NCBI RefSeq assembly: GCF_964194025.1
Contig: NC_134473.1
Span: 71,114,001 to 71,178,000, forward strand
Length of the DNA: 64,000 bases
Direction of reading: 5' to 3'
Origin: Convolutriloba macropyga
Taxonomy: Eukaryota
Below, one piece after another: positions 1 through 63,953 of the stretch. The notes under the pieces are model-generated. The model was not told the origin of the DNA and searched no databases. It saw only the letters and a program-made list of their open reading frames with translations. Position numbers and translations under genes: made by a program. Numbering within the stretch: position 1 is the stretch's first letter; each line of letters begins with the position of its first letter.

Positions 1-3000
1 GGCCAAACCGTTAAGGTAGTCAAACAAACAAGACTAACATTCACAATGGCACATCAACAATTCACAGAATCCTTTTTAGTTTTACCGACGGCAAACTCAA
101 TCATCCTAGGAAACCCTTTCTTCAAAAAACATGACATCACCATTAGCCCAGCACGTAAATTTCTACAATTATCAGACTTGACCATACAAATTAACGAAAT
201 AAAGCCGACAAACGAACCACGAAGAGTAGTTAGACAGAAAAAGATACCAATTTATCTCACGAAAAATACAACGATACAACCAAACCAGCATGCTATTCTA
301 GAATGTTCACCACCTGAAAGCACTGAAGAGTACAAAAACCTCAGTGGAGTACTGATACCGAATGAAATTTTGGAAAGAGAAACAGACTTAGCTTTCACTT
401 CTTCACTTAGCACAATTAGTGACCAGAATAAATTGTTTGTATCAACAATAAACATTACAAATCATCCAATTACCCTACACAAACGTACAGAAGTAGCAAG
501 ATTTTCAATATTGACACCCGAACAAGCAGATCAACTCATCAAAATTGATCCTGAACTTATAGCACTCGCTAAGTTCAGAGAAAAGGAAAACGAAATCCCA
601 GAAATCAATCAACTTATTCAAGACACAGAAAAGAAAGGAAAATTGCAACCGCCGCGACCTCCTCCAGACTACAATTCACTATGGTTCCCGACGCCAGAAA
701 CATGCGATCACCCCGAATTGCTGACACCAATCCAGTTAGAAATTTATAAAAAATTACAAGAACTTAGAAAAATGGAAAACTCAGACCCAATTAATAACAT
801 TGATGACCGACACAATTTCCTTCGCAGATTCCCTTGGAACAAATCAGCCTTAAACCCTGAACAGAAGGAAGAACTCGAAATACTGATACTTGAATATTGT
901 GATATTTTCGCGAAACATCGATTTGACGTCGGTTACAATACAGAACTGAAAATCAAACTGACTCCTGAGCATTCCATGCCAATGTACGTCCAAGGCCCTC
1001 CCACACCAGTACACCTCAGAGAAGAACTACAAGTGGAACTAGCCTTGATGCAGTACTATGGCCTCATCACAACATTGCCTCAATCGAAATACAGTAGCCC
1101 TTTGTTTGCTCACAGAAAGGAATCCGGTAAACTACGACTGCTAATTGATCTCCGGAGAATAAATCACCTTTTAAAAAACGATTATCTTAACTCAAATTTT
1201 CCAATCTCTAACATCACTGATGCAACTAATCACTTTGCCGGAAAGACACTTTTCACAAAACTAGACTGCTCACAAGCATATCACTGTGTCCAAATGGCAG
1301 ATGATTTATCAACACAACTTTTAGCGTTTAACTTTTCATCTCGGACCTATGCATACAAGTGTTTGGCACAAGGCCTCAACAAATCAGTGACCGGATTTAG
1401 TTCTTTCATAAGACATTACCTTGATCCTTGCTTGGCAGCAGACGTTTGTACACAATTCATGGACGATATTGGATGTGCGGTATCAAACTTTCAAGAGCTT
1501 TTACCAACACTAAGAAAAATTTTCGACTGTATTCGCAGATCTGGACTGAAACTAGCACCAGAGAAATGTGAAATAGCCTGCAAGTCAATGAAGTTCCTTG
1601 GAAACATTATAAACTCATCCGGAATTTCACCTGAAGCCGCAAAAATATCAAAATTCCTAAACACAATAAAAATGCCACAGACAACAAAACAAGTCAAAAG
1701 GCTAATCGGCTTTGTACAATTTTTCAAAAACTACATACCAAACCTTGGTGAAAAATTAATACCATTCTACCAACTGCTCAAAAAAGACGCAAAAATACAA
1801 CCCAGTGAAAAACACTATGAAAGACTTGAAATCATTAAAAAAGATTTACTCGAAGCAACCGACATGACATTACGACTCCCCCGACCTGACCTTCAGTACA
1901 TTTTATTATGTGATGCCAGCTACTATGCAGCCGGATTTGTTTTAATGGTAGAAGACTATGTCCAAGGAAAACAATCGAAAGAGAGGAAAACATATGCACC
2001 GGTATCATTTGGAAGCCAAACGTTCACAACAGCGCAACTCAAGTTCTCGATTTATTACAAAGAATTTTTAGCTCTCTATTTTGCATTGGAACATTTTGCT
2101 CATTACATTTGGGGCGCTAGTCAGCCAATTGTAGTACTCACAGACAACAAAAGCCTAACGCAGTTTTTCCAATCAAAGACTATACCACCCTCACTATGGA
2201 ACTTCCTGGACAGAGTCCTATCTTTCAACATAGTGATAGCACATATACCTGGGAGAGCTAACTACGCAGCAGATTTTTTGTCTAGAATTGAAACAGACAG
2301 ATCAGCAAGCCTTACGCTGAAAATGAACGACAAAATCCCAATACGCGAATTTGAAATAGACACGAAAGCAGATACACCAGATGTAACACTGAATGCAATT
2401 GATACAATAGATGAAATCTTCACACCAAAGAACCAACAAACCGAATTTGAGGAGCAACTCAAATTGCATGGGTTATATGAATCTTACTTAGAGCGTCAAG
2501 CAAGCCAACCAGCTGACGAGATAAAGGGATTTGTAAGATTCCATATACATCAAATAAATGCGCTACAATTCACAAACCCAGCAGATACTTTGAACGACAT
2601 ATTACAAAAAACTGACCCATTAGACCTAAAGCACGAACAAATGCAAGATGATGAAGTCCGTAGAGTGATTGAGTGGAAAATGAATGGAAGCCTAGTTGAC
2701 GTAACATACGGAACAAAAGTACTCAAAAAATACTACAAGCAATTAAATCGACTCATAGTGAAAGAAGGAATACTTTACCGTCTCTTTTATAACGATGTTG
2801 GACAAGTACAGTACGAGCAATACTGTTTACCAAAGCATTTGTGGAAGGAAGTACTTTATCGACTTCACAATTCACGTACAGCAGGTCACAATAGAATAAA
2901 CCGAATAATACAGGAATTCCGTCAAAGATTCTATTTCCCAGGCTTCACAGAACAACTACTAGACCTAGTCAAGAACTGTCTCACATGTCTCCAGCTCCGA

Positions 3001-5151
3001 AAAGCCAATGAGAAGCATCTCAGACCGAGTTTACAACCCTTGTCATCACTACAGTCATACCCAGGTGATATGCTACAAATAGATTTAGTGGGAACATTCA
3101 ATTCACCAGTTTACAAATATGTGCTAAGTGGCATAGATGTTTTTTCAAAGTTCTTGTTCGCCGTACCTTTAACAAATGCCAGCGCAGACACTGTAGCTAG
3201 AGAACTAGTGAAAATTTTCTTTAACCATAGTTACATCCCTGAGACCATTCTAAGTGATCTTGGCACAACATTCACATCGTCACTCTTCCATGAGCTTACT
3301 AAACTACTAGAAATAAAATTAAAACATGCAACTCTTAAACACCCGCAAACAATCGGGGTAGTAGAAAGATCACACAACGCTGCTTTGAAACGAATACTGA
3401 AAATCAATACAAGCAGTCAGTGGAATGACTGGCACAAATATGTCTCTCTCGCAGTCTTCATTCATAATACATCATATCACCACTCAATCGGCTGTTGCCC
3501 ATCCTCAATCTTCCACGGACGAGACCCGATCAAACCTTTGGATATACGATTTTCCAGGAAAGCAATGGAATCCGTTGAAACCAACTCTGATTACGTAAAT
3601 GCTTTACAGGACTCCATGATCACTAAATTCGCAGAAAACAAATTACGATTGATAGAATCTTATCAGCGATACAGATATTATTATGACAAAAAAGCGGAAG
3701 CTAAACCACTGCAGTTGCATTCATACTGTCTTCTTCTCAATCCAAAAATAACATCTCAACAACAAACGATCACAAAGACAGTCCAAGTTTGGTTACCACT
3801 TTATAGAGTAGAGAAAGTCTTAACTGACTCGAACTATATTATAAGAAAAACGGGCACACATTTTACCCAGTGTGTACATCGAATTCGAGTCCGCCCTATA
3901 AAACGACCAGACAATTTAGACGATTTAGCCACCATTGACCCAGCAGAGTTCAAAGCCGATCCGTCGCGAAGAGATACCAAAAAAGAGCCAGAACTCTTTG
4001 ACGAATATTTGGAAAACCTTGCATTTAATGATGTTTCCATAAACAACCATCCACCAGAACCACCCTCAGCTAAGAACCCTGTGAAAGTGTCACTATCAAT
4101 TCCAATTGCACCAGCTGCAGCACCTAGAGCCGAGCACCCTGCACCTGAAATCAGGCAACAACCAATAGTAGAACACCCGCCGACTCCAGAAAATGAAACA
4201 CCACCCCAATCACCCCCACCTATAACCAGAACTAATGTACTCGATGACCAAAAGGATAATGCAACCAATGAACCTGATCGCTTAGCACTGGGGTATGAAA
4301 AACGAAAATCGGAAAGACCACAAAACGTTGTTTATGGACCATCACCATTGAAACCTACGAAAATTCCGAAAAAAATCCAGTTCTCAAACCAAGTCGCTAG
4401 ACGGCAATATACAACTACCGACAGGAAAACACCAACTCGGAGAGCAACAACAATAGACGGACAAGCATTAGAAGTCTTGAATACAGACGAAACACCAACG
4501 AGAAGCGAAAAACGAAAAATAATTCAAAAATCTGTACAAAAAGCAAAAAGCTCAGAAGGCACTTCACGGGAAGTTAAATTAGACCAAGTCCGTGCTAGCA
4601 TTTTGAAATATCAAGGGAACGCAGAAACAGAACCCTCCCCTACGTCAGAGAAACGGAAAAAAACAAGAAACAACAAACAAACAACTATCAATTCTTTCAC
4701 ACCAAAAAACTGGCAAAAAATATTTTATGTCAAAGGCAATATTCTACGAATACCTTACCCTATAGCACATTCCATCTCAGCTGATTTCCATATGGGAAAA
4801 GGCTTCGCCAGACGCGTATCACGACAGTACCCGGGAATCAAACAAATAGCCGAGAAAAGTCCACAACTTCCAATCGGAGCGGTAATGTCATATTATGAAC
4901 CACGTGAAGACAAAATTATATTCAACCTTATCACAAAAAAACACTTCTTTGAGAAACCGACATATTACGCATTGTCACAAACACTTCACAACTTAAAGTA
5001 TCTGTTATTAAAACATCAAATCGATACTATAATCTTTCCAAAAATTGGATGTGGACTTGATCAGCTCAAAGAGAAAACAGTCTTCCATTTGATCCGCGAC
5101 ACATTTTCGAACTCAAAAATAACAGTGTATCATCAATTCTCAAAAAGCTGA
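1..5151 (+). CDS. pol: Pol polyprotein, 5'-truncated by the window: protease C-term, dUTPase-like spacer, RT, RNase H, integrase, Pro-rich linker, C-terminal macrodomain
   Basis: Frame is open from base 1. Motifs: protease IILGNPFF; RT SSPLF..RK..GKLRLLIDLR, LDCSQAY, QGL and FMDD (1456-1467); RNase H CDAS..EFLA..TDNKSL; integrase HHCC (H-NSRTAG-H..CLTC) and D..D-35-E (IDLVG / SDLG / VVER). No stops in about 1700 codons. Confidence 0.96.
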   Translation, partial: GQTVKVVKQTRLTFTMAHQQFTESFLVLPTANSIILGNPFFKKHDITISPARKFLQLSDLTIQINEIKPTNEPRRVVRQKKIPIYLTKNTTIQPNQHAILECSPPESTEEYKNLSGVLIPNEILERETDLAFTSSLSTISDQNKLFVSTINITNHPITLHKRTEVARFSILTPEQADQLIKIDPELIALAKFREKENEIPEINQLIQDTEKKGKLQPPRPPPDYNSLWFPTPETCDHPELLTPIQLEIYKKLQELRKMENSDPINNIDDRHNFLRRFPWNKSALNPEQKEELEILILEYCDIFAKHRFDVGYNTELKIKLTPEHSMPMYVQGPPTPVHLREELQVELALMQYYGLITTLPQSKYSSPLFAHRKESGKLRLLIDLRRINHLLKNDYLNSNFPISNITDATNHFAGKTLFTKLDCSQAYHCVQMADDLSTQLLAFNFSSRTYAYKCLAQGLNKSVTGFSSFIRHYLDPCLAADVCTQFMDDIGCAVSNFQELLPTLRKIFDCIRRSGLKLAPEKCEIACKSMKFLGNIINSSGISPEAAKISKFLNTIKMPQTTKQVKRLIGFVQFFKNYIPNLGEKLIPFYQLLKKDAKIQPSEKHYERLEIIKKDLLEATDMTLRLPRPDLQYILLCDASYYAAGFVLMVEDYVQGKQSKERKTYAPVSFGSQTFTTAQLKFSIYYKEFLALYFALEHFAHYIWGASQPIVVLTDNKSLTQFFQSKTIPPSLWNFLDRVLSFNIVIAHIPGRANYAADFLSRIETDRSASLTLKMNDKIPIREFEIDTKADTPDVTLNAIDTIDEIFTPKNQQTEFEEQLKLHGLYESYLERQASQPADEIKGFVRFHIHQINALQFTNPADTLNDILQKTDPLDLKHEQMQDDEVRRVIEWKMNGSLVDVTYGTKVLKKYYKQLNRLIVKEGILYRLFYNDVGQVQYEQYCLPKHLWKEVLYRLHNSRTAGHNRINRIIQEFRQRFYFPGFTEQLLDLVKNCLTCLQLRKANEKHLRPSLQPLSSLQSYPGDMLQIDLVGTFNSPVYKYVLSGIDVFSKFLFAVPLTNASADTVARELVKIFFNHSYIPETILSDLGTTFTSSLFHELTKLLEIKLKHATLKHPQTIGVVERSHNAALKRILKINTSSQWNDWHKYVSLAVFIHNTSYHHSIGCCPSSIFHGRDPIKPLDIRFSRKAMESVETNSDYVNALQDSMITKFAENKLRLIESYQRYRYYYDKKAEAKPLQLHSYCLLLNPKITSQQQTITKTVQVWLPLYRVEKVLTDSNYIIRKTGTHFTQCVHRIRVRPIKRPDNLDDLATIDPAEFKADPSRRDTKKEPELFDEYLENLAFNDVSINNHPPEPPSAKNPVKVSLSIPIAPAAAPRAEHPAPEIRQQPIVEHPPTPENETPPQSPPPITRTNVLDDQKDNATNEPDRLALGYEKRKSERPQNVVYGPSPLKPTKIPKKIQFSNQVARRQYTTTDRKTPTRRATTIDGQALEVLNTDETPTRSEKRKIIQKSVQKAKSSEGTSREVKLDQVRASILKYQGNAETEPSPTSEKRKKTRNNKQTTINSFTPKNWQKIFYVKGNILRIPYPIAHSISADFHMGKGFARRVSRQYPGIKQIAEKSPQLPIGAVMSYYEPREDKIIFNLITKKHFFEKPTYYALSQTLHNLKYLLLKHQIDTIIFPKIGCGLDQLKEKTVFHLIRDTFSNSKITVYHQFSKS
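4720..5136 (+). other. TARG1/OARD1 (Poa1p/DarG-like) macrodomain fused in frame to the Pol C-terminus
   Basis: IFYVKGNI..IAHSISADFHMGKGFA..IFNLITKK..KPTY..L...L..L..FPKIGCGLDQL..ITVY matches, motif for motif, human OARD1 as I recall it (ITYVKGDL..LAHCISEDCRMGAGIA..YYLITKK..KPTY..MPRIGCGLDRL..ITVY). Confidence 0.92.
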
Positions 5152-6385
5152 AGCCTACTTTTCACCTAAAACGCACCTCCATTATAGTAGCTATTGGAGC
5201 AATAACAGAAAGGATGCGAAAGAACGAAATTAAAGAGATAAAGAGAAAAGAATACAAAAAAGAGGAAAACTTGGAAGCCGAACGAACGAAGCAAAAACAC
5301 AAAAAAAGGAAATATCTTGTTGTGAAAAAAAAAATCAGTCGTCGAGCTATGCAAGACAACCTCGCACCTATCCACAAAAGGTCAGGTAACCAACCAAATA
5401 TGACAAATGAAGGAAGACAATCACAAAAAGCAGAAAAAAATGAAAAAACGAGAAAAATGGAAAAATTGGAAAAAACGAAGTAAGAGCGAATTTCAAATTT
5501 TGAGAAAAAATAACTACCGAACCCGTCTTCAGACATTACGTGGAGCTTATATTCCAATATTGATCAAGTTTTGAAGTTTAGTTTTCAAAAAAACTATAAA
5601 TAAAAAATTTGGGCAAAATCAGCAAAAAATGAAAAAGCGCCAAAGTTCAAAAGTCAACCAAACTTTCAAAAAAAGAGCAAACGACCTCAAATTTGGCCCA
5701 GCGACCCCATTATGCCACTAGAAAGGGCCCACCAAAGGGTTTTTACCTGGCACCAATAGGAAACGAGAACTTCTCTTCTGAATTTCCAAAAATCGGACAT
5801 CAAAAATGTGAAAATTGCACGCAAACAAACGGTAGCCCCACAAAATTAGATGCTGAAACGGGCAATTTTTTGCGCTGGTATTAAAGGCAACACGTATACC
5901 AACCCATCGAAGCCCAAACAGAACAGAAAAAATGAAAATTTTTGAAGTTATGGCCCAAAAATCACAGAAAATCGACTTTCGACAGCAACCCACTGCCTAT
6001 CTCCCAAAAATGAGCTAAAATCTCCATTTTTTTGAATTCGGAGACTACGAAACGCTGCACCAGACCCCAAAATGAGCCGACATGACCGGAATTTAGCTGT
6101 AATAGCCCCAGAATCCATTTTTGGCCGAACTGTGCAGACCAAAAGTCGACCGAAATCTGACCCAAAAAATAGCCTGAAAATCGGGGGTTTTTTCAAAAAA
6201 TTGCAAGTTTAAATGCCCAAAATGCCTAATTATATAGTACTCCGATAAAGCTAAGCTCACGGTGGTTCTAATTAAGCAAAAATACCCAGCACTTTAGCCT
6301 TGGTGGACAAGTTAGAGAACAGTATTGGTCATGTTGCACTAATCTGCAGAAACGCCAAAAAATGAAAAGTTCACTTACCATACCT

Positions 6386-6994
6386 TCATGAATTGATTGG
6401 CCCTTTTTGACGTTGCTGATTTCTTCGTACACCTAAGGCGCCTTGTGTCACACCAGCCCAAGCAGTTTTCTTTCTCTCTTCACTGATTAATGTTGATATA
6501 GAAAGAAGACACGTAAACTGATTTTGCACCCCAAAAGTCGAAACTGTATGGTGCCATCCATAAGGAAGATAAAGTGTCTCCCCGGGCGCTTGAACGGCAA
6601 TATATGCTTGGTCCACAAGCTCTGGCAGCTGATCGATAAGTGCTGGAACCTCTCTGGCCAATCTTACGACTTCAGCAGCAAACTTTCCAGGAGGCAACAA
6701 AATCCACAATTTTGAGGCTTGCCCGTGCAAAGTGATAAAAGAATCAGCAGCATCCTCCCAATCGGAATGCCAAGGCACGAACTGGGGTCCCTCGCCCAGG
6801 ATGCAAAATCCAAACGACCACGGAGCCAATTCAAACGTTGGGGGCAGCTTGTAATCTATATCACACTTGTACTCCTCCTTCAAGGTACAGTTAAATAAAA
6901 TGTCTTTGCCGAAGTTTCCGTACCGCGTTTCATCAACGGGCCAATTGAAACGCTTAGTGATGTTCCCAAACTTCTTTATATTCGCTAGGTCGCG
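6386..6994 (-). CDS. JmjC-domain (cupin-like) 2-oxoglutarate/Fe(II) dioxygenase, main exon (202 aa plus stop)
   Basis: WHSD (HxD, 6761-6769), SKLWILLPP and QAPGETLYLPYGWHHTV (distal His 6548-6550) are JmjC signatures. The frame stays open upstream of the tracked start to a TTTCAG acceptor at 6995-7000. Confidence 0.85.
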   Translation of the reverse strand, partial: RDLANIKKFGNITKRFNWPVDETRYGNFGKDILFNCTLKEEYKCDIDYKLPPTFELAPWSFGFCILGEGPQFVPWHSDWEDAADSFITLHGQASKLWILLPPGKFAAEVVRLAREVPALIDQLPELVDQAYIAVQAPGETLYLPYGWHHTVSTFGVQNQFTCLLSISTLISEERKKTAWAGVTQGALGVRRNQQRQKGPINS

Positions 6995-7090
6995 CTGAAA
7001 ATTTCATTAATCATTTAATATACAGTACAAAAGGCAAATTATTCGAGGAAACTCCAACAACTGCAAAACGTACTAAATAAGGAAACTCAC

Positions 7091-7232
7091 GTTTAAATTC
7101 CGATCAGAGAACTTCACAAGCTGTCTTTATGATCGAAGGAACACCAACCTCCACTTCCTTTGGCTGCACTCGCTTTACAGGCCGTAACAAAGCCTCAGCT
7201 TTAGATTTCAGATCATAAAATTCAGAAATCAT
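7091..7232 (-). CDS. Probable first coding exon of the JmjC gene (MISEFYDLKSKAEALLRPVK..GVPSIIKT / VKFSDRNLN)
   Basis: Acceptor TTTCCAG then ATCAAAATG at 7238-7230, GTGAGT donor at 7090-7085, and a 96-nt intron to the main exon. The ATG frame meets TGA at 7106-7104, so a 1-nt frameshift or a 58-nt GT-AG intron (7121-7178) is needed. Confidence 0.5.
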
Positions 7233-7521
7233 TTTGATCTGGAAATGAAATTTTAATTCATGCTAACATGCAATGATAACTAAAGCTACAAACATCTACA
7301 CAAAACGCTTTAAACACACGTGCTAAACTGTTTATTTCACGCACTCTGACAACACACTTAATTGAACTTTGTTGGGTAAAACATTACATGCACATGCACA
7401 CACTGAGTAATTAAATGAGGCATTAAAACAAACAGTTCTAACAATTGGTAAAGCACTCACTAAGTCTCAATGAAACTAACTCTTCCCTTCACTTACTCAT
7501 GCAGACACAAACTACACTGAT

Positions 7522-7746
7522 TTAACCTCTGAATAGGAGCCAACTAACAGCCCCCCTCAGTATGCACAAAACCAAGAGTATGATTAAGGCAACATAAATG
7601 AAGGACATCCAATCGAATTGATCTCCTTCAACTTGAACCCCACATTGTGGCGCATGGCCTCGAGTCCAAATGTTGAACCTTGCAAAATATGTGCCATTGG
7701 GACAGCAAGTAATAACAAACTCGTCAACAGTGACATTGAAACACAT
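7522..7746 (-). CDS. 74-aa single-pass membrane protein (accessory ORF of the retroelement)
   Basis: Real ATG in the context TTTTCAG|ATCAAAATG. N-terminal part has 4 Cys and two N-glycosylation sequons (NVT, NGT), followed by hydrophobic helix FIYVALIILLVLCIL. Confidence 0.6.
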   Translation of the reverse strand: MCFNVTVDEFVITCCPNGTYFARFNIWTRGHAPQCGVQVEGDQFDWMSFIYVALIILLVLCILRGAVSWLLFRG

Positions 7747-7930
7747 TTTGATCTGAAAAGCTCAATGAATATCAAATAAACTGATCCAACAAAATAAAGA
7801 GATTATGAAAGTTAAACAATTAACTAAATCATTCAAACACACAAACTGAACAAATAACCAGGGACAAATCAATTTTGACGTTTTGGAAGTACGCAGCTGC
7901 AAAATAATCATTGGGACACAAATCCAATCT

Positions 7931-7952
7931 AAATTTCAGTTACACAAAAATG
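7931..7952 (+). promoter_or_regulatory. Splice acceptor and start context for a subgenomic env mRNA
   Basis: AAATTTCAG (AG at 7938-7939), 10 nt before the ATG at 7950, as expected for spliced env expression. Confidence 0.55.
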
Positions 7953-10226
7953 AGATTAATTCTTTACCTTTTGACTTTATGCGAAGTATGCCTAATTCAG
8001 TCAACAAAATCAACTGACTACTTGTCTAAAGGAATTTTGTTCAATGAGAAAAGCAAAATCCTTTTGGCTGAAAAGTTTGTTAACATCGAATTCCTCGTTC
8101 CATTCCCAGAATACAATTTTACTACTAGAGCTTCAATCCAGGAAATGTTGACAAAACTAGCCGAAATGTGGAAACTTCCGTCAGTTTTCTGCCCCCTAGA
8201 TTTTTCCAGTCATTTCAATTCAACCACCGAACCCTTTAACTTGAACTGGATGCTACAGAAAACTATAAGCGAAACAACTGAAGCCCAACGAGAAGTTGAT
8301 TCTATGCGAGAAGAAACCGCTACCTTTCTAACGATGGGAGAAGAAAACGAACGGAAAAGAAGAGGAGCACATGTTGGAGCCGCATTAATGGCTGGCATAG
8401 GACTATTTGGTGGAGGAATTCTCATGGGAAACTCAGGGAGCTGTGGTTTTGCCGGAATTTTTGGTAACTGTCAGGACCAAGGTAGAAAAAATGCGGAAAA
8501 CATTGCCCAATTGAACGAGTACGCATCTGTGTTGACAGACCATGTACTAGAAGTTGAAAGCGAGGCGAACGAAAAATTTTTTCTCATTTCGAATGAACTT
8601 GAGGAAATCCAGAAGATACAAAATGAAATTATGAAAAACCAAAACGAAAATTGGAAAATCATAGAAGATCAATTTGAAGTCATCGAAAAAAACTTTCATT
8701 TGCTGAGAGATTGTACACAGATGTTATTCTCCAACCAGCAACTGAATATCAATTTTGACACTGTAGCGTCTCTCTTGTCCATCCTCTATGCAGACATAAA
8801 GAGCTACAGATCAGCTCTGTATGCGTACAAAGTCAACCTACTAAACTCAATTCCAATTTTATTGAGTAAACGTCTACCTATGTCTCTAGTCCCAAAGTCA
8901 TCGTTAATGGCTATACTCAACTCAGTTTACGATAGTCAAAAAGATGCCACCGATCGCCTTACATTGGCAATACCGATGCAAGATCTTTTATCGTACTACG
9001 ATGCAGAATTATTAAGTGAAGTTTCAACTATCACAGAAGGACTGTTGTTAACATTATCTATCCCTCTCTCCTCAAGCCAGACAGCATTCAACGTATACCA
9101 GGCTCATCTCATACCCATGCCACAACTAGATTCTTCAGAAGCCTTAAGATGGGTTACTGAAGGCCCTTACTTGGCTATATCTGAAGATTCGATGGAAACT
9201 ACGGTATTAACTGAACAACAATATTCAAACTGCCTCGGATCATCAAGATACCAAATATGCCACGAAACTATAGAAACCCACCTGGGACAATCGTCTTGTT
9301 TAGCCACTCTTTACTTCCATAGCTCAATTACTGCTCTCACAGTTTGCGACACAGAAAAGATAACACTTCCTACACCAGAAAAGGCTACTAATCTTGGATA
9401 CGGCATCTGGCTCATTACGTCCGCTTCGAAGACATTCACACTTCGAGAATATAGCATCAGAAGTGACAATTTGCCACGAAGTACTGAGCACCCAGGATGT
9501 AACGTATGTATTGTCACATTGGAATGCGGCACTCAACTAATTAGTAAATACATCAAAATCAGACCAGACCTTCAAAGTTGCGAAAATATCCCAGCGAAAA
9601 GAATAGCAGTCAAACTACCAGATCCTTTACAACATCTCATCTCAGCCATCCCTGACATCTCAGAATTGCCCTACTTTGAATCCAAAGTCGATGCAAACGT
9701 TGCTATGTTGAAAACCGTGAAGAAACAGTTAACAAAAAGCTCACAATTCATTGAATTAGAACAACTTGATGCAATTGCAAAACCAATTGCTCACAAAATG
9801 AAACTACTAAAACCTACATTAACAAATAAGCTTGAAACCTACGTCCCAATTAAGCTTTCACTAACTTTGACCTTAATTGTCTTTATCGGAAATCTCATCC
9901 TCCATGTTCTAGCCATGTATCTATACCATCGATTCGCAATTTTCAAACGTCTAGTACCGAACTTTTTGACTCATGATAAATCGAAAGTACCACTGAAACC
10001 GGTTGTCACTATAGCGAGTGAACACAAGGAAGCAGTGCGAAAGAGTGCCCACAAGTGGAAAGATGCATTAACAGTACTCACAGCCCAAGAACTTGGCACA
10101 CTTGCACGATCACGGTCTTTGACAAACAGTCAACAACTTAACACTTCGAGAAATTCCCTCGCGACAATTGCACGAGAAGACAACCCAATGGACGACACCA
10201 TTGAATTGGCAGAAACATCTACTTAA
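7950..10226 (+). CDS. env: Envelope glycoprotein, class I F-type fusion protein (758 aa)
   Basis: Signal peptide MRLILYLLTLCEVCLIQS; furin site RKRR (8352-8363) directly followed by Gly/Ala-rich fusion peptide GAHVGAALMAGIGLFGGGILMG; heptad/coiled-coil region; Cys-rich ectodomain; TM LSLTLTLIVFIGNLILHVLAMYLY; cytoplasmic tail. Confidence 0.9.
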   Translation: MRLILYLLTLCEVCLIQSTKSTDYLSKGILFNEKSKILLAEKFVNIEFLVPFPEYNFTTRASIQEMLTKLAEMWKLPSVFCPLDFSSHFNSTTEPFNLNWMLQKTISETTEAQREVDSMREETATFLTMGEENERKRRGAHVGAALMAGIGLFGGGILMGNSGSCGFAGIFGNCQDQGRKNAENIAQLNEYASVLTDHVLEVESEANEKFFLISNELEEIQKIQNEIMKNQNENWKIIEDQFEVIEKNFHLLRDCTQMLFSNQQLNINFDTVASLLSILYADIKSYRSALYAYKVNLLNSIPILLSKRLPMSLVPKSSLMAILNSVYDSQKDATDRLTLAIPMQDLLSYYDAELLSEVSTITEGLLLTLSIPLSSSQTAFNVYQAHLIPMPQLDSSEALRWVTEGPYLAISEDSMETTVLTEQQYSNCLGSSRYQICHETIETHLGQSSCLATLYFHSSITALTVCDTEKITLPTPEKATNLGYGIWLITSASKTFTLREYSIRSDNLPRSTEHPGCNVCIVTLECGTQLISKYIKIRPDLQSCENIPAKRIAVKLPDPLQHLISAIPDISELPYFESKVDANVAMLKTVKKQLTKSSQFIELEQLDAIAKPIAHKMKLLKPTLTNKLETYVPIKLSLTLTLIVFIGNLILHVLAMYLYHRFAIFKRLVPNFLTHDKSKVPLKPVVTIASEHKEAVRKSAHKWKDALTVLTAQELGTLARSRSLTNSQQLNTSRNSLATIAREDNPMDDTIELAETST

Positions 10227-10461
10227 CTGTCTAACCTTAACATGTGATAAACTTTAACATATGACTTCTTCACAGCCCTTTCATAAACAATCCCGATATT
10301 ACCTTAAGATCAAATGTGCTCTGATACCTAATTGCTCTCATTATTGCTTTACCTTTTAACCCCCTTTCAATTGGGCGGCTTTTCACTCCCTTTAAACTTC
10401 GTCTCATTTATCTGGAAATAATTCTTCAAAATTTTCATTGAAAATTTTCAAAAAGCAGCGT

Positions 10462-10810
10462 TGTGTGACATCCTAAATATTTTCATATTTAATTCCTAAA
10501 TATTTTCATATTTAATTAGATGTCAATCTATCATTTAACCTCTAAAGTAATAGACTCGAATTGACTTAATAGCCTTGATTTTCTCGTTCATATTATGCCC
10601 TTTACTATGCGAGTGCTTTCGAACAATGTTATTGAATTAGTCTAAATAAACCAATGTAAACTAAATGAACAGATTGCATTGATGTTATTAATCTTAACAT
10701 TATTTATAATGACCTTACATTCTTAATAAAATGAACCTCTAATCATTGAAAGTAGAGAATAGAATTCATACCCCAGAAGATGTGATCTAAAGTAAAGTTA
10801 CTTTAATTCA
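10462..10810 (+). repeat. Putative 3' LTR (end not determinable without the 5' LTR)
   Basis: Starts TGTGTGACA after the purine-rich AAAAAGCAGCG. AT-rich, with AATAAA at about 10585 and 10724 and an internal 23-bp tandem duplication. Confidence 0.45.
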
Positions 10811-10989
10811 TGTTCAAAATATAGCAGTTTTCAAACTAAGGCTGTCAGTTCCCACCGTTCGAAGACCTTAGACCGCTCTTCAGGAAAATTGAAAACCAAA
10901 ACATAAATTTGATAGAAGTTTATTTTGAATTTGATTTAAAATAACATAACAGATATACAGAAACTAAGTATATTACAACTACATTAAAA

Positions 10990-11480: not shown

Positions 11481-13076
11481 AAATGCCGGTCTTCTGGTAG
11501 TTTCCATGCTCTAAGCTAAGCATGGCTTTGTTACAATACGCCTAGTTATTCTTTTTTGTCGTCTGACACTCTTCTTTTGATCGTCTTTCGTAAATGACTT
11601 ACCTCTTCAAATGTCTTTGACTCGCTTTTGGTCACTTATGGCTGCCCTAAACTTTTCGAAGTTAATTGAAGTACTGCTATGTGATGAAACCTATAAATGA
11701 AATTTAATAAAAAACTAGCATGAGAAACCAGAATAAAATGAGCTATCAGAAATGAGCGGAACGCTAGCCTTTAAAATGTTTTACTTTATACATGGATATT
11801 ACCTGGTGCCTTACTTTTTCAGCAGTCATTTTCAATAGCCTTTTGTTATTCTGGAAATTCTCTCGCTAACCTTGCGAGAAATTTACGATTGGTTCCCGTA
11901 ACTAGAAAAAGATAGTTTTGTTAGTTGATCAATTGCTCTCCAACCGATTTTGTGGTAATTATATTGGTCACGTGGTCTTTTTTAAGCGGTTTTTCGCCTG
12001 GCAAATTTTCCCGACGTTAGGAGGTTATGTTTATCTTCTATTTGGAAATTGACATTGTACCATGTTCTGTGATTGGCTTTTCGGAAACGGATCTTTTCTG
12101 TTTGTACCATACAGCTTAATGGATGTTTTTTTACAAAATGATTTACTATGTAGTTGCACGTGCTCTGTTACTGGGGGTGATTAACGTACTTGGGGGCACA
12201 AACGGAAAAGATCCTCGGAAACAATAATTTATTGGACTGTTGAGCATAACTTCTCATGATTTTTTGTATGTGATAATCTTTTCATTTATTCGCCACTTGT
12301 TTATTTAGTCAAATTGGGGCTCAGAGAGGGATTTGCTTATTTTGTTTCTTTTAAAGCCGCAAATTTGTGAATTGAGAAATTTTTTCATAGAGCAAAATTC
12401 TCTGTTTTGAAAGTTCTAGTCACATGGTTAAAAATAGTCTCATTTTTTTAAAATATGGTTTTCCCAATTCACTCATAGTCCGTTCTAGGTCTAGTTTTTT
12501 GTTTAGTCAATGAAAATTCTTTAAATTGTACGTGAGGACTTGTCCTGCTATGTTTTTTAATTCGCTTTACCTTTTGATCACGTTTTTCGTTTTTACATAA
12601 GTCACGACTTTCACGTTTGACTTCTGACTTACCTCACCCACTGTTTCAACTGAATGGTTTTTAAATCCATTCACTCAATGAATTACGCAAGATAGTGAAT
12701 ACAGTCAAGGTGAGAATATCAAAATCAAAAGAGAGGGGATAAAGCCCGGTCATTAAGTCAATGAGAATTAGGTTATCAAAGTTCATTAGTGTTTGCTAGC
12801 TGACATTGGTATTAAGCTTATTAGCTTTCAGTTTCGAAGCTGAATTAAGTATAGTTTTAGAATGGAAACGAAACTTGCACGTCAAATTAGAACACTTCTT
12901 AACACTGAAAACAAACAGAAAAAATTTCGGTCAATTTATCTCTTCTTTTTTTCTTATGTTTCAATCCCGATGTGCATCAAGCGCGTCAATGACGACTATT
13001 TTCCGGCAATCCGCCGGCTATGTTGGTAAATTTCGTGTTGTTTTTTTCGTGTTGTTTTCCAATTGCTCTTATTTAG

Positions 13077-13333
13077 ATGAACCTACACGGTCACTGTCTG
13101 GTCTTATTCTCAAGAACAATGTCAAAAACCACCTGAACACTTTCCCTGCAGAAGTAACAAAGTTTATCAAACAAGAATGCCTGAAATGCGTGGGCGATCG
13201 TTCCCCTCTCATTCGTGCTACAATTGGAATACTCATCACTACAATTGCGACCAAAGGAAACATCCTCTCCTGGCCCGAACTTGTCCCTACACTAATGACG
13301 TGTCTGGATTCCGACAGTATAGAAACAGTAGAG
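13077..13333 (+). CDS. TNPO1: Transportin-1 (karyopherin beta2), first exon visible in the window
   Basis: [33 protein letters not shown]; bounded by TTTAG| and |GTAGGA. Confidence 0.95.
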
Positions 13334-13817
13334 GTAGGAGGCTGTTCTTTTAGTGCTGATTGAGGACTTGAATGATAAAGAAAAAATGATTAAATTGATA
13401 ATCGACAGGTATCGACTTTGTATGCGATCTTTCGACGGATTGCAATGGTGTAGCCCATATCAGGAGCTCATAAAATAACAGTTTTACTTAAGCTTACAAA
13501 TATATTTTATATTTATTCTGTGGAACACATTAAAAAACATTTTTTCTCCTCTGTCGTCTAGGAGATACTGTTGAAATTTATGTGAGTTGTGTAGTACTTT
13601 ATTAAGACTGGAATATATGCCAGTGTGTTGCTGGAGATTAATTCCCCCAACGTTTGTGCGTTATCTTTTGTATTTTTCAGTAAATCTTGTCCGTTTCGTT
13701 TCATTCTTTAGTTGCGCAAAAGCCAACAGTAGTTTAACTGTCCGATGTGAGCTGCTTGATTGGAATTTTTGCCTACTTTTGTTGTACGTGGTCATTAAAA
13801 TTAACTGTCTGTTTCAG

Positions 13818-14156
13818 GGTGCGTTTGGAGCCTTACAGAAAATTTGCGAAGACTCATATGAAGTTTTTGAAATTGAACCCGCTTCTCAATACCTCAGTGT
13901 CATGATCCCCAAATTTATTCTCTTTCTTAAGCACCCCCAGGCCAAAGTGAGGTCACATTCTCTGGCATGTGTGAACCAGTTTATCTTTGGTCGATATTCC
14001 CCGCTTGGAGATCACATGGATCTTTTTATTGATGCTCTATTTTCGCTGTCCTCAGACAATGACCCCGAGGTCCGGAAGAACGTCTGCAGGGCACTGGTAA
14101 TGCTTCTTGAAGTGCGACTGGAACAACTTTTGCCTCACATGACTCAGATTATTGGT
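13818..14156 (+). CDS. TNPO1: Transportin-1 exon
   Basis: [31 protein letters not shown]; TTTCAG| and |GTAAGA; phases consistent. Confidence 0.95.
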
Positions 14157-14629
14157 GTAAGAACCTCGCTTTATAAAATTTTCTACATATGTCATTAAAG
14201 CAGCATCTATTACAACAATTTAAATTCATTCACTGGAAAGAATTGCGGGCTTTTAGTTATTTTTACATAAGATAACTCGCGGAACCCAAACGTTAAAAAA
14301 TGAATTTACCTCTTGAAAAATTGCTTTCAATGACTAAAACTGCAGTACACTGTTACAAATGTGTAAGTTATGTGACTGTGATCAAGTCACTGTGAAGATC
14401 TGACATTCGTTGAGAACCGCATAGCGGTTCGAGGTTTCGAGAATTTGTCTTTTGAGCCCAGTCAGGTAACATAGCTTGAAACATGCATTTTACACCTTTA
14501 AATTGCTGAAAGCCATTGGCATTTTGTATCGAAAATCTGACATTGCTGAATTTGGCATTTGAATCTGTGCACTTGAGTGTTGCAATGACAGATATAAAAT
14601 TGTAGATGAAAATTGTATGTTTGTTTTAG

Positions 14630-14748
14630 TATATTTTGGAGAGATCTTTGGACAAAGATGAAGCGGTGGCTTTGGAAGCGTGCGAGTTCTGGCTTACTTT
14701 TGCAGAGCAAGACATCTGCCGCGAAATACTCAGAGAGTTCCTACCAAA
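14630..14748 (+). CDS. TNPO1: Transportin-1 exon (not in ORF track)
   Basis: [27 protein letters not shown]; TTTTAG| and |GTAAGC. Confidence 0.95.
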
Positions 14749-14932
14749 GTAAGCCAAGCGTATTGTCAATAGTATCTTATCACAAATTTTAACAAGTGTT
14801 CCCAAAAGGGGTACTGACTAAAATTGACCGTATTTTATTGCCTTGCCTTGCAATTAGAAATTTGTTGAATTTCGAATTCGTGCATGGAAATCAGCGATTT
14901 AAGTTTGAATGGTGATTGTTTGTTTGTTTTAG

Positions 14933-15583
14933 ACTTATTCCGGTGCTTGTGCAATGTATGCGTTACTCTGAAATTGACGTGATCCTTCTGAAAGGAGATC
15001 TGGAAGAGGACCAGCACATACCAGATCTTGAGAAAGACATCAAACCCCGCTTTCACTACTCTAAGACCTCTGGATCTGCCGGTAGACTCTCAAGCAACGG
15101 TTCTGCAGACTTAGCTTCAGATGATGAAGATATCGGAAGTCCGGGATTTGGACCTGGAGGTCCAGATCTGGATGATGAAGACACATTATCGAATTGGAAC
15201 CTAAGAAAGTGTTCAGCTGCGGGCCTGGACGTTTTATCAAATGTATTCCACGAAGATATCCTGGATACGTTATTACCCATTCTGAAATCTAAATTGCAGT
15301 CTACAGAATGGGAAGAAATAGAAGTTGCTATTCTAGCTTTAGGCGCTATAGCTGAAGGATGTATGAAGGGAATGATTCCTCACTTGCCCGATCTGATTCC
15401 GTTTTTAATTCAGGCGTTGAACTCGAAAAAGGCGTTAGTGAGAAGCATTACATGTTGGACTTTGTCTCGGTACACACAATGGGTGATGCAACAGCCTCAT
15501 GACATATGCTTGCAGCCTTTAATGTCAGCTTTGTTGAGAAAGATTCTTGATGCTAATAAACGGGTGCAGAAAGCAGCTTGCAG
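14933..15583 (+). CDS. TNPO1: Transportin-1 exon including the acidic H8 loop
   Basis: [47 protein letters not shown]; AG/GT boundaries in phase. Confidence 0.96.
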
Positions 15584-15656
15584 GTTAGTGGAACGAAAAA
15601 AACCTGATCTTTTCAAATATCAGCTCAGTGAAATATGTAGAAAGAAAGTGTTTATT

Positions 15657-16045
15657 AATTGCTCTTGAACGCAGTTCATAGCAATTATAGTAAACGTGTG
15701 TGTCTTTTTTTAATGCAAATTTTTCGCTTGACAGTTTTGCGCTTTTCTTCTAGAACATTCTTTGACTTCTCAAGTGACTTTTTCACGCTTTCGTTCTTCA
15801 TTTTTGAGTAATCTCTATTGCTCTGAAGTAAAGCTAATATAAATTCGGTTGCAGAATAAGTGAGGTATGTGCTCTGTAGCGCAGTGGTTAGTAGTTGTGG
15901 CTGTGGATCGGGAGGCCAGTGGTTCGAATCCCGGCGGAGGAAATATTTTTTTGCACCCATAATTTGATCTAGGCTACAGCCCCTGAATTAAATTGCCTCG
16001 CCTGTCGTTCAAGAGCAATTCTTCCGACATTTGTCGGTTTATGTT
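15657..16045 (+). mobile_element. Non-autonomous Helentron/DINE-1-like element, family B (AATTGCTCT subterminal inverted repeats)
   Basis: 5' AATTGCTCTTGAACG, 3' CGTTCAAGAGCAATT, then hairpin CCGACATTTGTCGG and a T-run. Related copies at about 26104-26440, 28446-28670, 31311-31505, 37816-38168 and 40146-40555. Confidence 0.7.
15871..15943 (+). pseudogene. tRNA-derived (His-like) SINE-head remnant inside a family B element
   Basis: A box TAGCGCAGTGG, B box GGTTCGAATCC and a CTGTGGA loop. Anticodon and acceptor stems pair poorly. Confidence 0.6.
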
Positions 16046-32579: not shown

Positions 32580-33241
32580 GTAAGACACAAGACAGGACAC
32601 TCTAGGTGTGCAGTCATGTAGACGGAGTATTTACATTCCCAACCATTTACCCTGAGTTCATCTTGCTAGTTGAGTGCAATTGGTCTGCAGTTTCATATGG
32701 CCGCATGCACAGTCTCAAAGACATCCGAATTTTGAGGATGAACAAGTCTTACTCCAAAATTAGGGAATGACAGTAGTGAATTATAATTATGAAAAATTAG
32801 TTCGTTTAGCGATTTCGAACAGTTTGAAGCAATTGTCATAGTCGTGTTTTTTTTACAAAATTATGGCTTGACAGTTTTTAGTCCAGAATGCCTGCTTGAT
32901 TGATTTAATTAATAGCCGCCTCAGCTTCTCAGCCGGCTATTATAGCGCTCCTATTTTTTTACAATCAAAGATGAAAAGTCTTTTTCAAAGATTCAGTCTT
33001 TTTTTAAGATCTGTTCACACATTTTCATGAAAATGGTTTTGCGACGTGAATTTTTTTGGTCTAATTTTAAAGTAGATTGAGAAAACGGTATTTGAACAAA
33101 AATTCGCTTTCTCGCTAGTGATTTTTTGTTTACATGTGATAAAATTTTGTGATAAACTTATTAAATAGTTTCAGATTAACTGAATTCCAGGGCAGCCGTG
33201 GTGGCCCTGTTGAAAACATTTCTTTATCTGAATTGTGAATC

Positions 33242-48689: not shown

Positions 48690-51600
48690 TTGTTTTTTGT
48701 AGACCGATTTGGTCAAAAATTTAAAATTACATTAGATTTTTACATTACCGTGTTAAATGCTGAGTTTTTGTTGATTAGTATGAATAATAAGTAGTTAATA
48801 TCATTAAATTTTATTAGGTCAAGTGTTGGAACTTTGGTCCGCTTTTGGGTTTATGGTTGTTTCTGCCAGGAGCAAACAATCGATTGATTGATGGTCCTTA
48901 TGATACTCAAATTACTCAAATAAACCTTTTCTTTTTTCTTTTCGTTTTCATTTTTCATTTAATGTCCTGTATGTTGTCTCAGTAGCCACTGAAAATTTAA
49001 AAACAAATTTTTTTAAAGGCTTTGGCGAACATTGGTTGACCAAATAACGCCTTTCGATTTGTATAGAATTTTCCGACAAGTAAGAATATTAATTGATCGA
49101 CTATGTTTTGGTCAATGAAACGCAATAATGATCCTACTTTTAGAAAAAAATTAGGATTTTCAAAAATATAGTTTTCACCAGCATTAAAAACAGAAATTGA
49201 ATCAAACTGATTTTTCGTTTTATTTTTCACCAGCTATTTCATTTCACTTTTTAGCGTTTTTTCCGACTTGAATTGATTCGAGTTGGTTTTCGAGTTGACA
49301 CGACCATATCGTTACACGCCAAGTAATCTGTCTTCTTCAATGACTTTTAACAATACACAGCAGTTGAATTTGTTGGTGGCGTCCATTTTTTGAATCTTTT
49401 TGTATAGGTTTTATGGAGAATTGTAAGTCATTCCGTGAAATTGCAAACACAATTCTTCATGGGAAAGACAAAGTTAATAAATTGAATTTTAACCAATTAA
49501 TTGATAGAGAGGTTTTGTGGTAGACTTGATTGCTTTTGAAAAATGATTTTTTGACTTTCTGTGATCTCGATTCCTCTCAAAATTAGTTTCGGAAGCTGAA
49601 AGACCTTGATTAATAATCTATTTTCTTACTGCCTGCAGCACAAATTTTTTTTGTCGACTGACTTGGTCAAAAATTTAAAATTACTTTAGATTTTTTGTTG
49701 GTGTGTTAAGTGATGAATTTTTGTTGTGATTAGTATGAATAATAAGTAGTTAATATCATAAATATTAGATTTGTCAAATGTTGTTAATTTAGTACGTTTT
49801 TGGTTTATGGTTGTTTTTGCCAGGAGCAAACAATCGAATGATTGATGGTCCTTTTGATACTCAGATTAATCCAATAAACCATTTCTCATATTTTTAAGTT
49901 TTGTTTTTTTCGTTTTTGTTTTCTATTTAAATTCCTCTATGTTGTTTCGATAGCCAGTTAAAACCTAAGAACAATTTTTTTAAGGCTTTTCCGAACAACA
50001 TTTGACCAAATAATGTCCCTCAATTTTTATAAAAATTTCTGTAAGTAAACTAAAATTTGAATTTTTTGTCTTGTCTTTTCCCTTTTCCTCGACGTTTTAT
50101 GCTTCTGTTGTTCTTATTAATTTGTAGACTATATTTTGCTCAATGAATCATATTATTGATCCTACTTTAAAAAAATAAGATTTCTAAAAATTTAGTTTTC
50201 ACCAGCATTTTAAGCAGAAATTGAATCAGACTGCTTTTTCATTTTCTTTTTCACTAGCTATTTCATTTCACTTTTAAGCAATTTTTCCAAATTGAGTTGA
50301 TTCGAATTGATTCTGGAGTCTTCTGATAACGTTTTCTAATTTGTTTCTTCATTACTTTGTCACGACCATATCGTTACACGCCAAGTAGTCGGTGTCTTTA
50401 TCAATGACTTTTTGTTGACAAAACACTGCAGTTAAGTTTGTTCGTGGCGTCCATTTTTTGAATAGTTTTGTACAGGTGTTATGGGAAATTGTGAGTAACT
50501 TTGTGAACTTGCAAATACAATTCTTAAAGTGAGAAGACATAGTTAATAAATTGTTTTTTTAAATATTTGATAGAGGTTTCGTGGTAGACTTGATTGCTTT
50601 TGCAAAATGGTTTTTGACTTTCTGGGATCTTGATTCCTTTGAAAATTAGTTTTGGAAGCTGAAAGACATTGCTTAAAAATCTATTTTCTACTATCTGTAA
50701 CACAAATATTTTTTATCGACCGATGAGGTCGAAAATTTAAAATTACATTAGGTTTTTACATTACTGTGTTAAATGGTGAATTTTTGTTGATTAGTATGAA
50801 TAATAATTAGCTAATATCATAAAAAAAATTTAGTCAAATGTTGGTATTTCAGTCTTTATTTGGCTTTATGTTTGTTTTTGCCAGGAGCAAACATTGGAAT
50901 GGTTGAACGTCCTTTGATACTCAACTTACTCAAGTAAACCATTTCGCATGTTTTTTTTACAAGTGTTTGTTTTCTTTTTGTTTTTTATTTAATGTCCTTT
51001 TTGTTGTCTCGGTAGTCACTAAAAATATAAAAGCAAATGTTTTTTAAAGGCTTTGGCGAACAATGTTTGACCAAATATTGTGTCTCAATTTGCATAGAAA
51101 TTTCCGAAAATTAAGAATAGATTTTGAAATTTTCGTCTTTTCTTTTCCCTTTTCCTGGCGTTCTGTGCTTCGTTTGTTCTTATTAATTTGTCGACTATGT
51201 TTTGCTCACTGAATCATATTAACGATCCTATTTCAAAAAAATTAGGATTTCTAAGAATATAGTTTTCACCAGCATTAAAACCAGAAATTGAATCAGACTG
51301 TTTTCATTTTATTTTTCACGAGCTGTTTCATTTCACTTTTTAGCATTTTTCTCCAAATTGAATTAATTTGAGTTGATTCTCGAGTTGACACGACCATATC
51401 GTTACACGCCAAGTAATTAAAGTGTCTTTTTCAATGACTTTTAAAAATACACAGCAGTTAACTTTGTTCGTGGCGTCCACTTTTTGAATCTTTTTGTATA
51501 GGTTTTATGGAGAATTGGGAGTAATTCCTTGAAACTGCAAACACAATTCTTGATGGGACAGACAAAGTTAATAAATTGAATTTTTAACTAATTAATTGAT

Positions 51601-54600: not shown

Positions 54601-54850
54601 TCTGTGATCTTGATTCCTCTGAAGATTTGTTTTGAAAGCTGAAAGACCTTGATTAATAATCTATTTTCTTACTGCCTGTAGCACCAATATTTTTTTTATC
54701 TAATGATTTGGTCAAAAATTTTAAATACATTAGATTTTTACATTATCGTGTTAAATGCTGATTTTTTGTTGATTAGTATGAATAATAATTAGTTAATATC
54801 ATTAAATTTTATTAGGTCAAGTGTTGGAACTTTGGTCTGTTTTTGGTCTT
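48690..54850. repeat. ~1.0-kb tandem satellite, about 6 units, organised as a ~2-kb A/B higher-order repeat
   Basis: GACCATATCGTTAC at about 49302, 50363, 51392, 52398, 53351 and 54364; CCAGGAGCAAACA-type motif at similar spacing. Confidence 0.92.
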
Positions 54851-55741
54851 TCGACATACGTAACGATATGGTCTGATAAAGCGTAAGGTTCGCAGTTTTT
54901 GTCAGAGGGTTTCTGTTCTCAAATGATTACTACAATCAATGCTATGAGACTGCCAAATATCCCCCTGCCAAATTTTGTCTCCGTAATAATTAATTGAGTT
55001 TTTTCATAGCAAGAAGTTTTTGTTCTCGAGGTAGATACCTTTTCATTGGTAGTGACAATTTAGATACAAAAAATTGTCACAGGAATGTTTACCATTTTTT
55101 TCAAGTTCTTTTTTTTAATTTGTTCTTAGTTTTTAGGTGTTTGAATTTTGTGCAATGAAACGTAATAATGGCTTGCGAATTGGCTGGTTAAACGTTTCAG
55201 GTGCCATAGAAGCGATGATTTTGAAGACAATAGTTTCTTCGAAAAAATGAGCAATCGTTTATAAACCTTCGCAAATGTTTATTCTAGTTTTTTAAACATT
55301 TTTGTATTAAATTGCTCTCAAATGAAGTTTGTTGCAATTATGTTAGTATGGGGCTTTCCTTTATGCAATTTTTGTCTTGGTCGATTTTTCGACTTACCCT
55401 TTAAACTTTACGTCCTCATAAAGGGAATAAATAGTTAAAGCCCGGAAGGCATAAAGTAGCTTAGCAGCTATCTTAGTACCTTATGCAATAGTGGTCTCTT
55501 AGGCTGAGCAGCTATCTTAGAGCCTTACCCAAATGTAGTCTCTTGGTATGCAAGTAACTGAAACTGTTTTGAGGAGACAATTTCAGTATCTGAAGGACGG
55601 TTCTTCATCTTAAAAGGTTGTCCAACCTCAGTCAATCCCCCTGAGTTACCCCCACTCTGAGTCAGTTCACGCAACAGTCACCCCCGTACTCCTCCTCAAC
55701 CTGGCAATTTCAACCCCCTTTTGTACAGCCTTCCTCACCCT

Positions 55742-62875: not shown

Positions 62876-63071
62876 AATTCTGAATGTATGATGAGGCATA
62901 ACATTTTCACAAGCGCTGGTTTTTAATTTCATCTTGAGCTCAATACGTGGACTTGGTCATCGTTCTCGATGATATTTCCTTTCATTCCCAGCTGCTCTGT
63001 TTATCTAAGCAGAATGGAAAGAAATAACAATCATGATACAAATTTCGCATTGTTTCTTTTAAATTTTCAAT

Positions 63072-63953
63072 TTAGATTTAGACTTGCCAAGTCTTAAATC
63101 AGACTTGGATTTAGACTTGCCAAGTCTTAAATCAGACTTGGATTTAGATTTGCCAAGTCTTAGGTCAGACTTCGATTTAGATTTGCCAAGTCTTAGGTCA
63201 GACTTGGATTTAGATTTGCCAAGTCTTAGGTCAGACTAGACTTGGATTTAGACTTGCCAAGTCTTAAATCAGACTTGGATTAAGAATTGCCAAGTCTTAA
63301 ATTAGACTTGGATTTAGATTTGCCAAGTCTTAGGTCAGACTTGGATTTAGATTTGCCAAGTCTTAGGTCAGACTTGGATTTAGATTTGCCAAGTCTTAGG
63401 TCAGACTTGGATTTAGATTTGCCAAGTCTTAAATCAGACTGGGATTTAGACTTGCCAAGTCTTAAATCAGACTTGGATTGAGAATTGCCAAGTCTTAAAT
63501 CAGACTTGGATTTAGATTTGCCAAGTCTTAGGTCAGACTTGGATTTAGATTTGCCAAGTCTTAGGTCAGACTTGGATTTAGACTTGCCAGTTCTTAAATC
63601 AGACTTGGATTTAGACTTGCCAAGTCTTAAATCAGACTTGGATTAAGAATTGCCAAGTCTTAAATCAGACTTGGATTTAGATTTGCCAAGTCTTAGGTCA
63701 GACTTGGATTTAGATTTTCCAAGTCTTAGGTCAGACTTGGATTTAGATTTGCCAAGTCTTAAATCAGACTTGGATTTAGATTTGCCAAGTCTTAGGTCAG
63801 ACTTGGATTTAGATTTGCCAAATCTTAAATCAGACTTGGATTTAGACTTGCCAAGTCTTAAATCAGACTTGGATTTAGACTTGCCAAGTCTTAAATCAGA
63901 CTTGGATTTAGACTTGCCAAGTCTTATATCAGACTTGGATTTAGACTGCCAAG
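63072..63953. repeat. 33-bp minisatellite, about 26-27 copies
   Basis: Unit TTAGA(C/T)TTGCCAAGTCTTA(AA/GG)TCAGACTTGGAT. Confidence 0.97.

Follow-up and report, generated by a model that had tools for sequence, protein, structure and literature searches.

How does a retrotransposon express two genes that lie on its antisense strand, each starting a few nucleotides behind a splice acceptor? The question arises in a 64-kb stretch of the Convolutriloba macropyga genome (the window hereafter), in which a sequence-only reading had found that two minus-strand ORFs share one acceptor-plus-start cassette. Both cassettes are there to the letter: TTTTCAG|ATCAAAATG at 7744..7759 heads the ORF of a small membrane protein (TM), and TTTCCAG|ATCAAAATG at 7230..7245 heads a JmjC gene. 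That reading ascribed significance to the nine shared letters themselves. It also proposed that one non-coding antisense leader, perhaps from the 3' LTR, is spliced alternatively to each ORF, or else that a polycistron is resolved by trans-splicing of a spliced leader (SL).

Positions 1-10977 of the window are the 3' part of a young Gypsy element, in the order gag, pol, antisense block, env, with gag and the 5' LTR lying upstream of the window. The 3' LTR (10464-10977, plus strand, 514 bp) is 100% identical to the 5' LTR, and a 5-bp target duplication (ACTAC) flanks the element. With its LTRs, PBS, target duplication, gag, and a pol in RT-RH-IN order, it is a Ty3/Gypsy element. The pol ORF (46..5151, plus strand) encodes RT, RNase H, integrase, and a weak C-terminal macro domain (~4700-5150; E 0.028), which is seen by eye in other families too and is possibly a second candidate counter-defence module. 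The env-like ORF of 758 aa (7950..10226, plus strand) is the third sense ORF and has a signal peptide, a furin site, a TM segment near 628-660, and a splice acceptor of its own (7933..7952; TTTCAG ends at 7939, ATG at 7950); RKRR at residue 135 is followed by a hydrophobic stretch. It has no Pfam match and no meaningful PDB match. A host transportin-1 gene (12956-15668, plus strand; ~60% identity to animal homologues) adjoins the element. Two tandem arrays also occur in the window, one of a ~1-kb unit repeated six to seven times and one of a 33-nt unit (~48700-55000 and 62900-64000).

The antisense block, on the minus strand between pol and env, consists of the TM ORF and the JmjC gene. The TM ORF (7522..7746) encodes a predicted single-pass membrane protein of 74 aa with the pattern C-x-CC-x-N-x-T ... 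W ... C ... W, then a TM helix. The JmjC gene has a first exon at 7091..7232, an intron at 6995..7090 (GTGAGT ... TTTTCAG), and a second exon at 6386..6994 with the JmjC-only Fe(II)/2-oxoglutarate oxygenase domain. A second, short intron is predicted just after the stop (6344..6378, GTAAGT ... TTTCTGCAG), and a donor at or just after the JmjC C-terminus is found in most families. Intron 1 falls in phase 0 at one shared protein position in all eight other copies examined. In the window copy, exon 1 does not share the reading frame of exon 2 and runs into a stop (7106-7104) ahead of its donor at 7090, so this copy of the JmjC gene is broken. We rejected a possible third antisense ORF, located between JmjC and pol, as it is not conserved.

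Pfam searches of the antisense block returned JmjC/cupin only. The iron triad (H76-x-D78 and H149) and the 2-oxoglutarate lysine (K95) are invariant in all eight rows of our alignment, and the protein combines the HxD/E...H triad and the 2OG lysine with the double-stranded beta-helix fold of Fe(II)/2OG oxygenases. Its best PDB sequence matches are PHF2, KDM7A, and PHF8 (E ~1e-6). The structure model has low confidence (mean pLDDT 58), and its fold matches are JmjC proteins. The same HxD...K...H signature is found in KDM7/PHF8/PHF2, KDM2, and JMJD6; the element protein differs from these in being JmjC-only, lacking a PHD or other reader domain, and has 15-24% identity to them. Judged by its residues, the enzyme is catalytically intact, and it has been kept under selection across ten families.

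The JmjC protein has further relatives. Single-ORF, JmjC-only proteins of 255-300 aa from other data sets (P0154-P0184) are related at E 1e-13 to 1e-5, and the ESM Atlas returned only unnamed and JmjC clusters. All close protein homologues are encoded on genomic contigs; a spliced product is not among them. Exon 1 was also compared with unspliced distant homologues, but the likeness did not exceed that of shuffles. One distant relative (L157:89-615, plus strand) lies antisense downstream of a BEL/Pao pol (minus strand; Peptidase_A17, E 2e-21) and has GTAAGT right at its stop, as in the Gypsy cassette. The JmjC gene may be common to Gypsy and BEL elements, with a hint of wider spread. Inside several old copies the JmjC part is tandemly amplified, with up to ~11 units of ~1.1 kb on C2 (27.097-27.110 Mb) and further cases on C15 (20.71-20.73 and 30.07 Mb) and C11 (25.44-25.46 Mb).

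Related elements were the check that the sequence-only reading had named for its two acceptors. Searching the genome with the JmjC exon gave at least 96 matches, 33 of which were taken as 10-kb loci for comparison. JmjC identity over these loci ranges from 53% down to 29%; env lies head-to-head with the JmjC gene in all 33, and pol is in range in 31. Twelve further JmjC loci had env in nine cases, pol only in one, and neither in two. Of the 33 other copies, 28 have the cassette at the TM start and 25 at the JmjC start by a fixed filter (acceptor, up to 13 nt, ATG); those it missed have decayed or belong to family C, whose acceptor ACTTCAG fails the filter. We grouped the elements by eye into ten families (A-J) with one representative each. 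The TM and JmjC ORFs are present in all ten representatives, and both acceptors are kept throughout, with YAG 5, 6, 7, 8, or 9 nt before the ATG and in mixed phase. The gag ORF, translated from unspliced RNA, serves as a control: in none of nine leaders does an acceptor lie near its ATG. The window's family falls with B and E in one clade (support 100/99 in the RT tree and 100/100 in the env tree).

Between families G and H, dN/dS was 0.11/2.3 for JmjC and 0.16/0.85 for TM; synonymous sites are saturated in most other family pairs. These values indicate that both ORFs are under purifying selection. The TM start itself takes two forms: in families A-F, Met-Cys stands exactly at the predicted mature N-terminus, and in families G-J (L079, L086, L088, L096), a signal peptide is added. 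Because the YAG acceptors are conserved in ten families and the ORFs behind them are under selection, we regard both as almost certainly real splice acceptors, and the pairing as ancient within the element lineage. The mixed spacing and phase mean that the exon spliced on is non-coding. To this extent, the proposal of a non-coding antisense leader joined to each ORF has held up.

The shared nine letters themselves fared differently. The window has just two exact copies of the 12-mer CAGATCAAAATG, each on the minus strand and at an ORF start, and base composition alone would give an exact 12-mer repeat in the 2.8-kb block ~1e-4 times. This repeat could suggest a dedicated element, arisen by local duplication or serving as a specific recognition site, but the comparison with other copies largely refutes that explanation, which we hold to be very improbable. 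Exact identity of the nine letters between the two cassettes was found in one of ten families (A) and, within family A, in two of five copies. Of the other 18 spacers, five match ATCAAA with no more than one mismatch, and pairwise comparison of the 18 gives three identical pairs in 153. Outside the motif the two window cassettes show no similarity, and their flanks do not align. With one mismatch allowed, CAGATCAAAATG has two matches in the window, which is not above shuffles (mean 1.67), and ATCAAAATG alone occurs twice on the minus strand and three times on the plus strand. The identity of the letters is likely a coincidence, the consensus signal AG|RTY of the acceptor overlapping with CAAAATG, which we take to be a Kozak-type start context. 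It is the layout that is conserved and not the word, the nine-letter identity being incidental.

The spacer between the TM stop and the JmjC acceptor bears on whether the two ORFs could share one mRNA. In the window it is T-rich and 283 nt long (7239..7521, minus strand), and it contains the GTGAGT at 7460-7455 that had been noted behind the TM stop, a GTAAGT at 7496, and AATAAA at 7336-7331. A single bicistronic mRNA would take a leader on the TM acceptor only; the JmjC acceptor would close an intron from 7496 or 7460, and JmjC would be translated by leaky scanning or reinitiation. The two family-A donors, which precede the JmjC acceptor by 258 and 222 nt, fit this arrangement, as does the one donor-like spacer site in each of families C, D, and E. 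Six of the ten families, B included, have no strong spacer donor, and the positions vary in the four that have one (-113, -148, -171, -222). The 7460 donor is therefore present but not conserved, and the strong start context at the TM ATG would argue against leaky scanning. We regard the bicistronic arrangement as improbable. Since six families lack a strong spacer donor, the 5' exon of JmjC must be supplied either by sequence upstream of the TM gene or by an SL. Spacer length ranges from 177 to 333 nt across families (501 in one broken copy), and AATAAA 90 nt before the JmjC acceptor is confined to family A.

Each ORF might instead have an internal promoter just upstream, the acceptors closing short 5'-UTR introns or being vestigial. 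Internal promoters are documented for the env of the Oikopleura elements Tor3b/4b and for gene23 of the plant element Grande, in the available text of the respective sources (PMC4402516; PMC7264820). Families G-J do have a local 5'-UTR intron, with a non-coding micro-exon whose donor lies 50-64 nt before the TM acceptor. In family G, the upstream antisense acceptor lies ~35 nt from the opposite-strand env acceptor, so there is no room for a promoter there, and no local donor precedes the JmjC acceptor in six of ten families. Promoters of this kind we likewise regard as improbable.

The remaining question is where the leader comes from. Both sources named at the outset are viable, since the host genome carries SL RNA genes and six of the ten families have an antisense LTR acceptor-donor pair. 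A 25-nt SL core has been published for an acoel, in which 30.2% of genes are trans-spliced according to the part of the study available to us (PMC9911081). That core has 2,922 matches in the genome, against one for a control, which marks the host as a likely acoel. In 1,401 cases, the match runs into a GTAAG donor; of the first 100 listed, 98 are on C9, mostly in tandem arrays, and the leader + GTAAG matches fold as SL RNA hairpins. The arrays lie on C9 at ~23.1-23.8 Mb and from 62.0 Mb (L111-L114), with 1-2 kb spacing and a long hairpin. These features indicate that SL RNA genes and SL trans-splicing are both present in the host.

Retroelement RNAs in this genome receive this leader. An ATG lies within 12 nt of the SL in 315 other matches, a set selected for proximity that does not give the typical spacing; many of the 30 SL-ATG matches read are LINE ORF1 starts. 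At one ORF1 start, the exact leader lies directly upstream in 26 of 30 copies and in degenerate form in the other four, with the ATG 2-8 nt behind it. Such SL-headed copies imply that SL is added to retroelement RNA here, just before the ATG. LINE heads (L127-L156, L168-L197) often read leader + TTTCAG|AGATG or leader + AGATG, and these LINEs may rely on SL trans-splicing of read-through transcripts instead of a promoter at the 5' end. One LINE pattern search gave no match. An SL relic (leader tail + TTTCAG) heads a repeat in the window (33148-33170, plus strand).

Genomic relics of an SL joined to the antisense genes were looked for as well, a weak test because relics are rare. SL plus the window cassette gave five one-mismatch matches, all to another repeat or by chance; SL plus the TM start gave none; and SL plus the LTR-exon start gave 13, none from these elements. 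None of the 54 SL junctions read maps into these elements, and the 12 further JmjC loci have no SL tail. Four sequencing runs compared with the predicted introns behaved like genomic DNA and contained no spliced joint, which counts neither for nor against splicing.

The rival source is the element itself. By analogy with HTLV-1 HBZ, transcription would start from a 3' LTR promoter in all families and a short non-coding leader would be cis-spliced to either acceptor, its donor being joined over ~2.5-3 kb of antisense env; an SL might cap this leader without joining the ORF acceptors directly. The antisense strand of the LTR has TTTCAG followed 50-130 nt on by GTRAGT in six of ten families; the sense strand has no such pair, and 0.2-3.5% of shuffles do. 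A second family-D copy has the antisense GTAAGT too. Together with the micro-exon of families G-J, the LTR GTAAGT makes cis-splicing to the TM acceptor likely in relatives. The six families fall in two clades and so are not six independent cases, and A, B, and E lack the pair. Moreover, TATAAAAG stands directly before GTAAGT in G and H, and the LTR motif may be an antisense TATA box.

For the window, such a leader would need the donor at 10302 or the weak antisense GTAACT at 10801-10796 in the 3' LTR, which occupies the position of GTAAGT in other families. The sequence-only reading had pointed to three AG|GTA sites at 10302, 10327, and 10352 (10297..10354, minus strand) as donor-like. All three are present, but they lie in the env 3' UTR, outside the 3' LTR. 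The sites at 10327 and 10352 are kept only in two young copies; 10302 (AG|GTAA) is kept in four of five family-A 3' ends, with no counterpart aligning in B or E. It is as strong as some real JmjC donors, among them CAG|GTAAAA and CAG|GTGATA, and a TAG|GTATGT site lies at the inner edge of the LTR in family B. Other donor-like sites that seem to align in antisense env were rejected as codon by-products, as they coincide with different residues in each family and show no excess codon conservation.

The env gene also favours a cis-spliced leader. Its acceptor-then-ATG layout is found in nine of ten families, a conserved GTAAGT donor lies 207-364 nt before gag in eight of nine sense leaders, and env is likely spliced from this donor over a ~9-kb cis intron in the same element. 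Because env shares the layout and has a cis donor, the layout alone is not diagnostic of SL addition.

Weighing these points, our tentative preference for the window's family, held at a little under an even chance, is that direct trans-splicing of the host SL at 7752 and 7238 makes each ORF translatable. What speaks for it is a clade (A, B, E) that has no antisense LTR pair and a spacer that lacks a strong donor in most families; against it stand the retention of 10302 in family A, the family-B site, and the lack of a genomic SL junction. In this clade we consider direct SL addition slightly likelier than use of a weak cis donor such as 10302, and the HBZ-like scheme for all families is a realistic possibility of lower rank. 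In the preferred SL reading, one antisense pre-mRNA would start at or beyond the 3' LTR and run through env; SL addition at 7752 would yield the TM mRNA and at 7238 the JmjC mRNA, in the manner of an operon. In families C-J, the leader would be a short antisense-LTR exon, cis-spliced to either acceptor and itself likely SL-capped, given that its acceptor has no upstream donor in the element. The leader source is thus likely to differ by clade, and the either-or of LTR and SL survives in that divided form, with the LTR pair missing from the window's own clade. The reverse orientation would protect the introns, as splicing does not remove them from the sense genomic RNA, which is the form that is packaged and reverse-transcribed.

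The plant elements Retand, Grande, and RIRE2 carry extra ORFs in antisense (PMC11963269, PMC7264820), and so does the fungal element Boty (brtn, by a title among the references of PMC7264820). As far as the available text of these sources goes, Grande gene23, RIRE2, and Retand TRP28 (aORF-3R) are likewise conserved antisense coding genes downstream of pol that are inherited with the element. In the elements described here, too, an antisense ORF downstream of pol is conserved in most copies and under selection. Unlike aORF-3R, the present block belongs to an animal element with env and contains two genes, each start being fed by a splice acceptor, and it has a recognisable JmjC enzyme with two introns. 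The aORF-3R lies directly before the 3' LTR, whereas here the block is between pol and env, and env lies between it and the LTR. The Pfam search of the block found no TRP28 or SMC domain.

HTLV-1 HBZ and APH-2/3/4 are spliced antisense mRNAs from the 3' LTR, as described in the accessible part of PMC10186651. This type corresponds to the rival scheme and, by analogy, probably to families C-J. HBZ is one gene whose leader alters its N-terminus; here there are two ORFs in a Gypsy element with a predicted non-coding leader, and the antisense-LTR donor is absent or weak in the window's clade. For SL use, the Gypsy element Cer1 of C. elegans makes a subgenomic mRNA that takes the host SL (PMC3315495), and ~30% of long reads from Hydra transposable elements carry SL (PMC12220107), in the portions of these sources at hand. 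Cer1 has one SL site on a sense transcript, and that portion does not describe a two-acceptor antisense operon-like unit. The Tor elements of Oikopleura are env-bearing and Gypsy-type too, and in Tor3a, env is expressed by cis-splicing from a donor close to where gag starts, much as we infer for env here; antisense accessory genes are not mentioned in the available text (PMC4402516). Transposon-borne TET/JBP dioxygenases occur in fungi, according to the accessible part of PMC12730594.

In the literature, subscription papers and supplements aside, we found no JmjC or spliced antisense gene pair in LTR elements of acoels or other animals, and no two-acceptor antisense unit between pol and env of an animal element. 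The main text of PMC13524379 contains none of the terms acoel, JmjC, antisense, or splic, and the available text of PMC5408684 does not mention JmjC. Antisense accessory genes as such are known already; the pair of an intron-bearing JmjC gene and a TM gene, antisense between pol and env, is what we did not find in print.

Antisense accessory genes of Gypsy elements have so far been known mainly from plants and fungi, and mostly lack a recognisable function. A JmjC enzyme under selection is a direct candidate for a transposon-borne counter-silencing or RNA/protein-modifying enzyme. A bolder interpretation, which we think unlikely although worth stating, is that a lineage of env-carrying animal retrotransposons has an SL-resolved two-gene antisense operon and would use its own JmjC demethylase to strip silencing marks from the element. 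Cis and trans leader use can be compared naturally between the two clades that have an LTR exon and the one that lacks it. Should both acceptors receive SL, this would be an operon inside a retrotransposon, and host trans-splicing would let mobile elements gain genes without new promoters.
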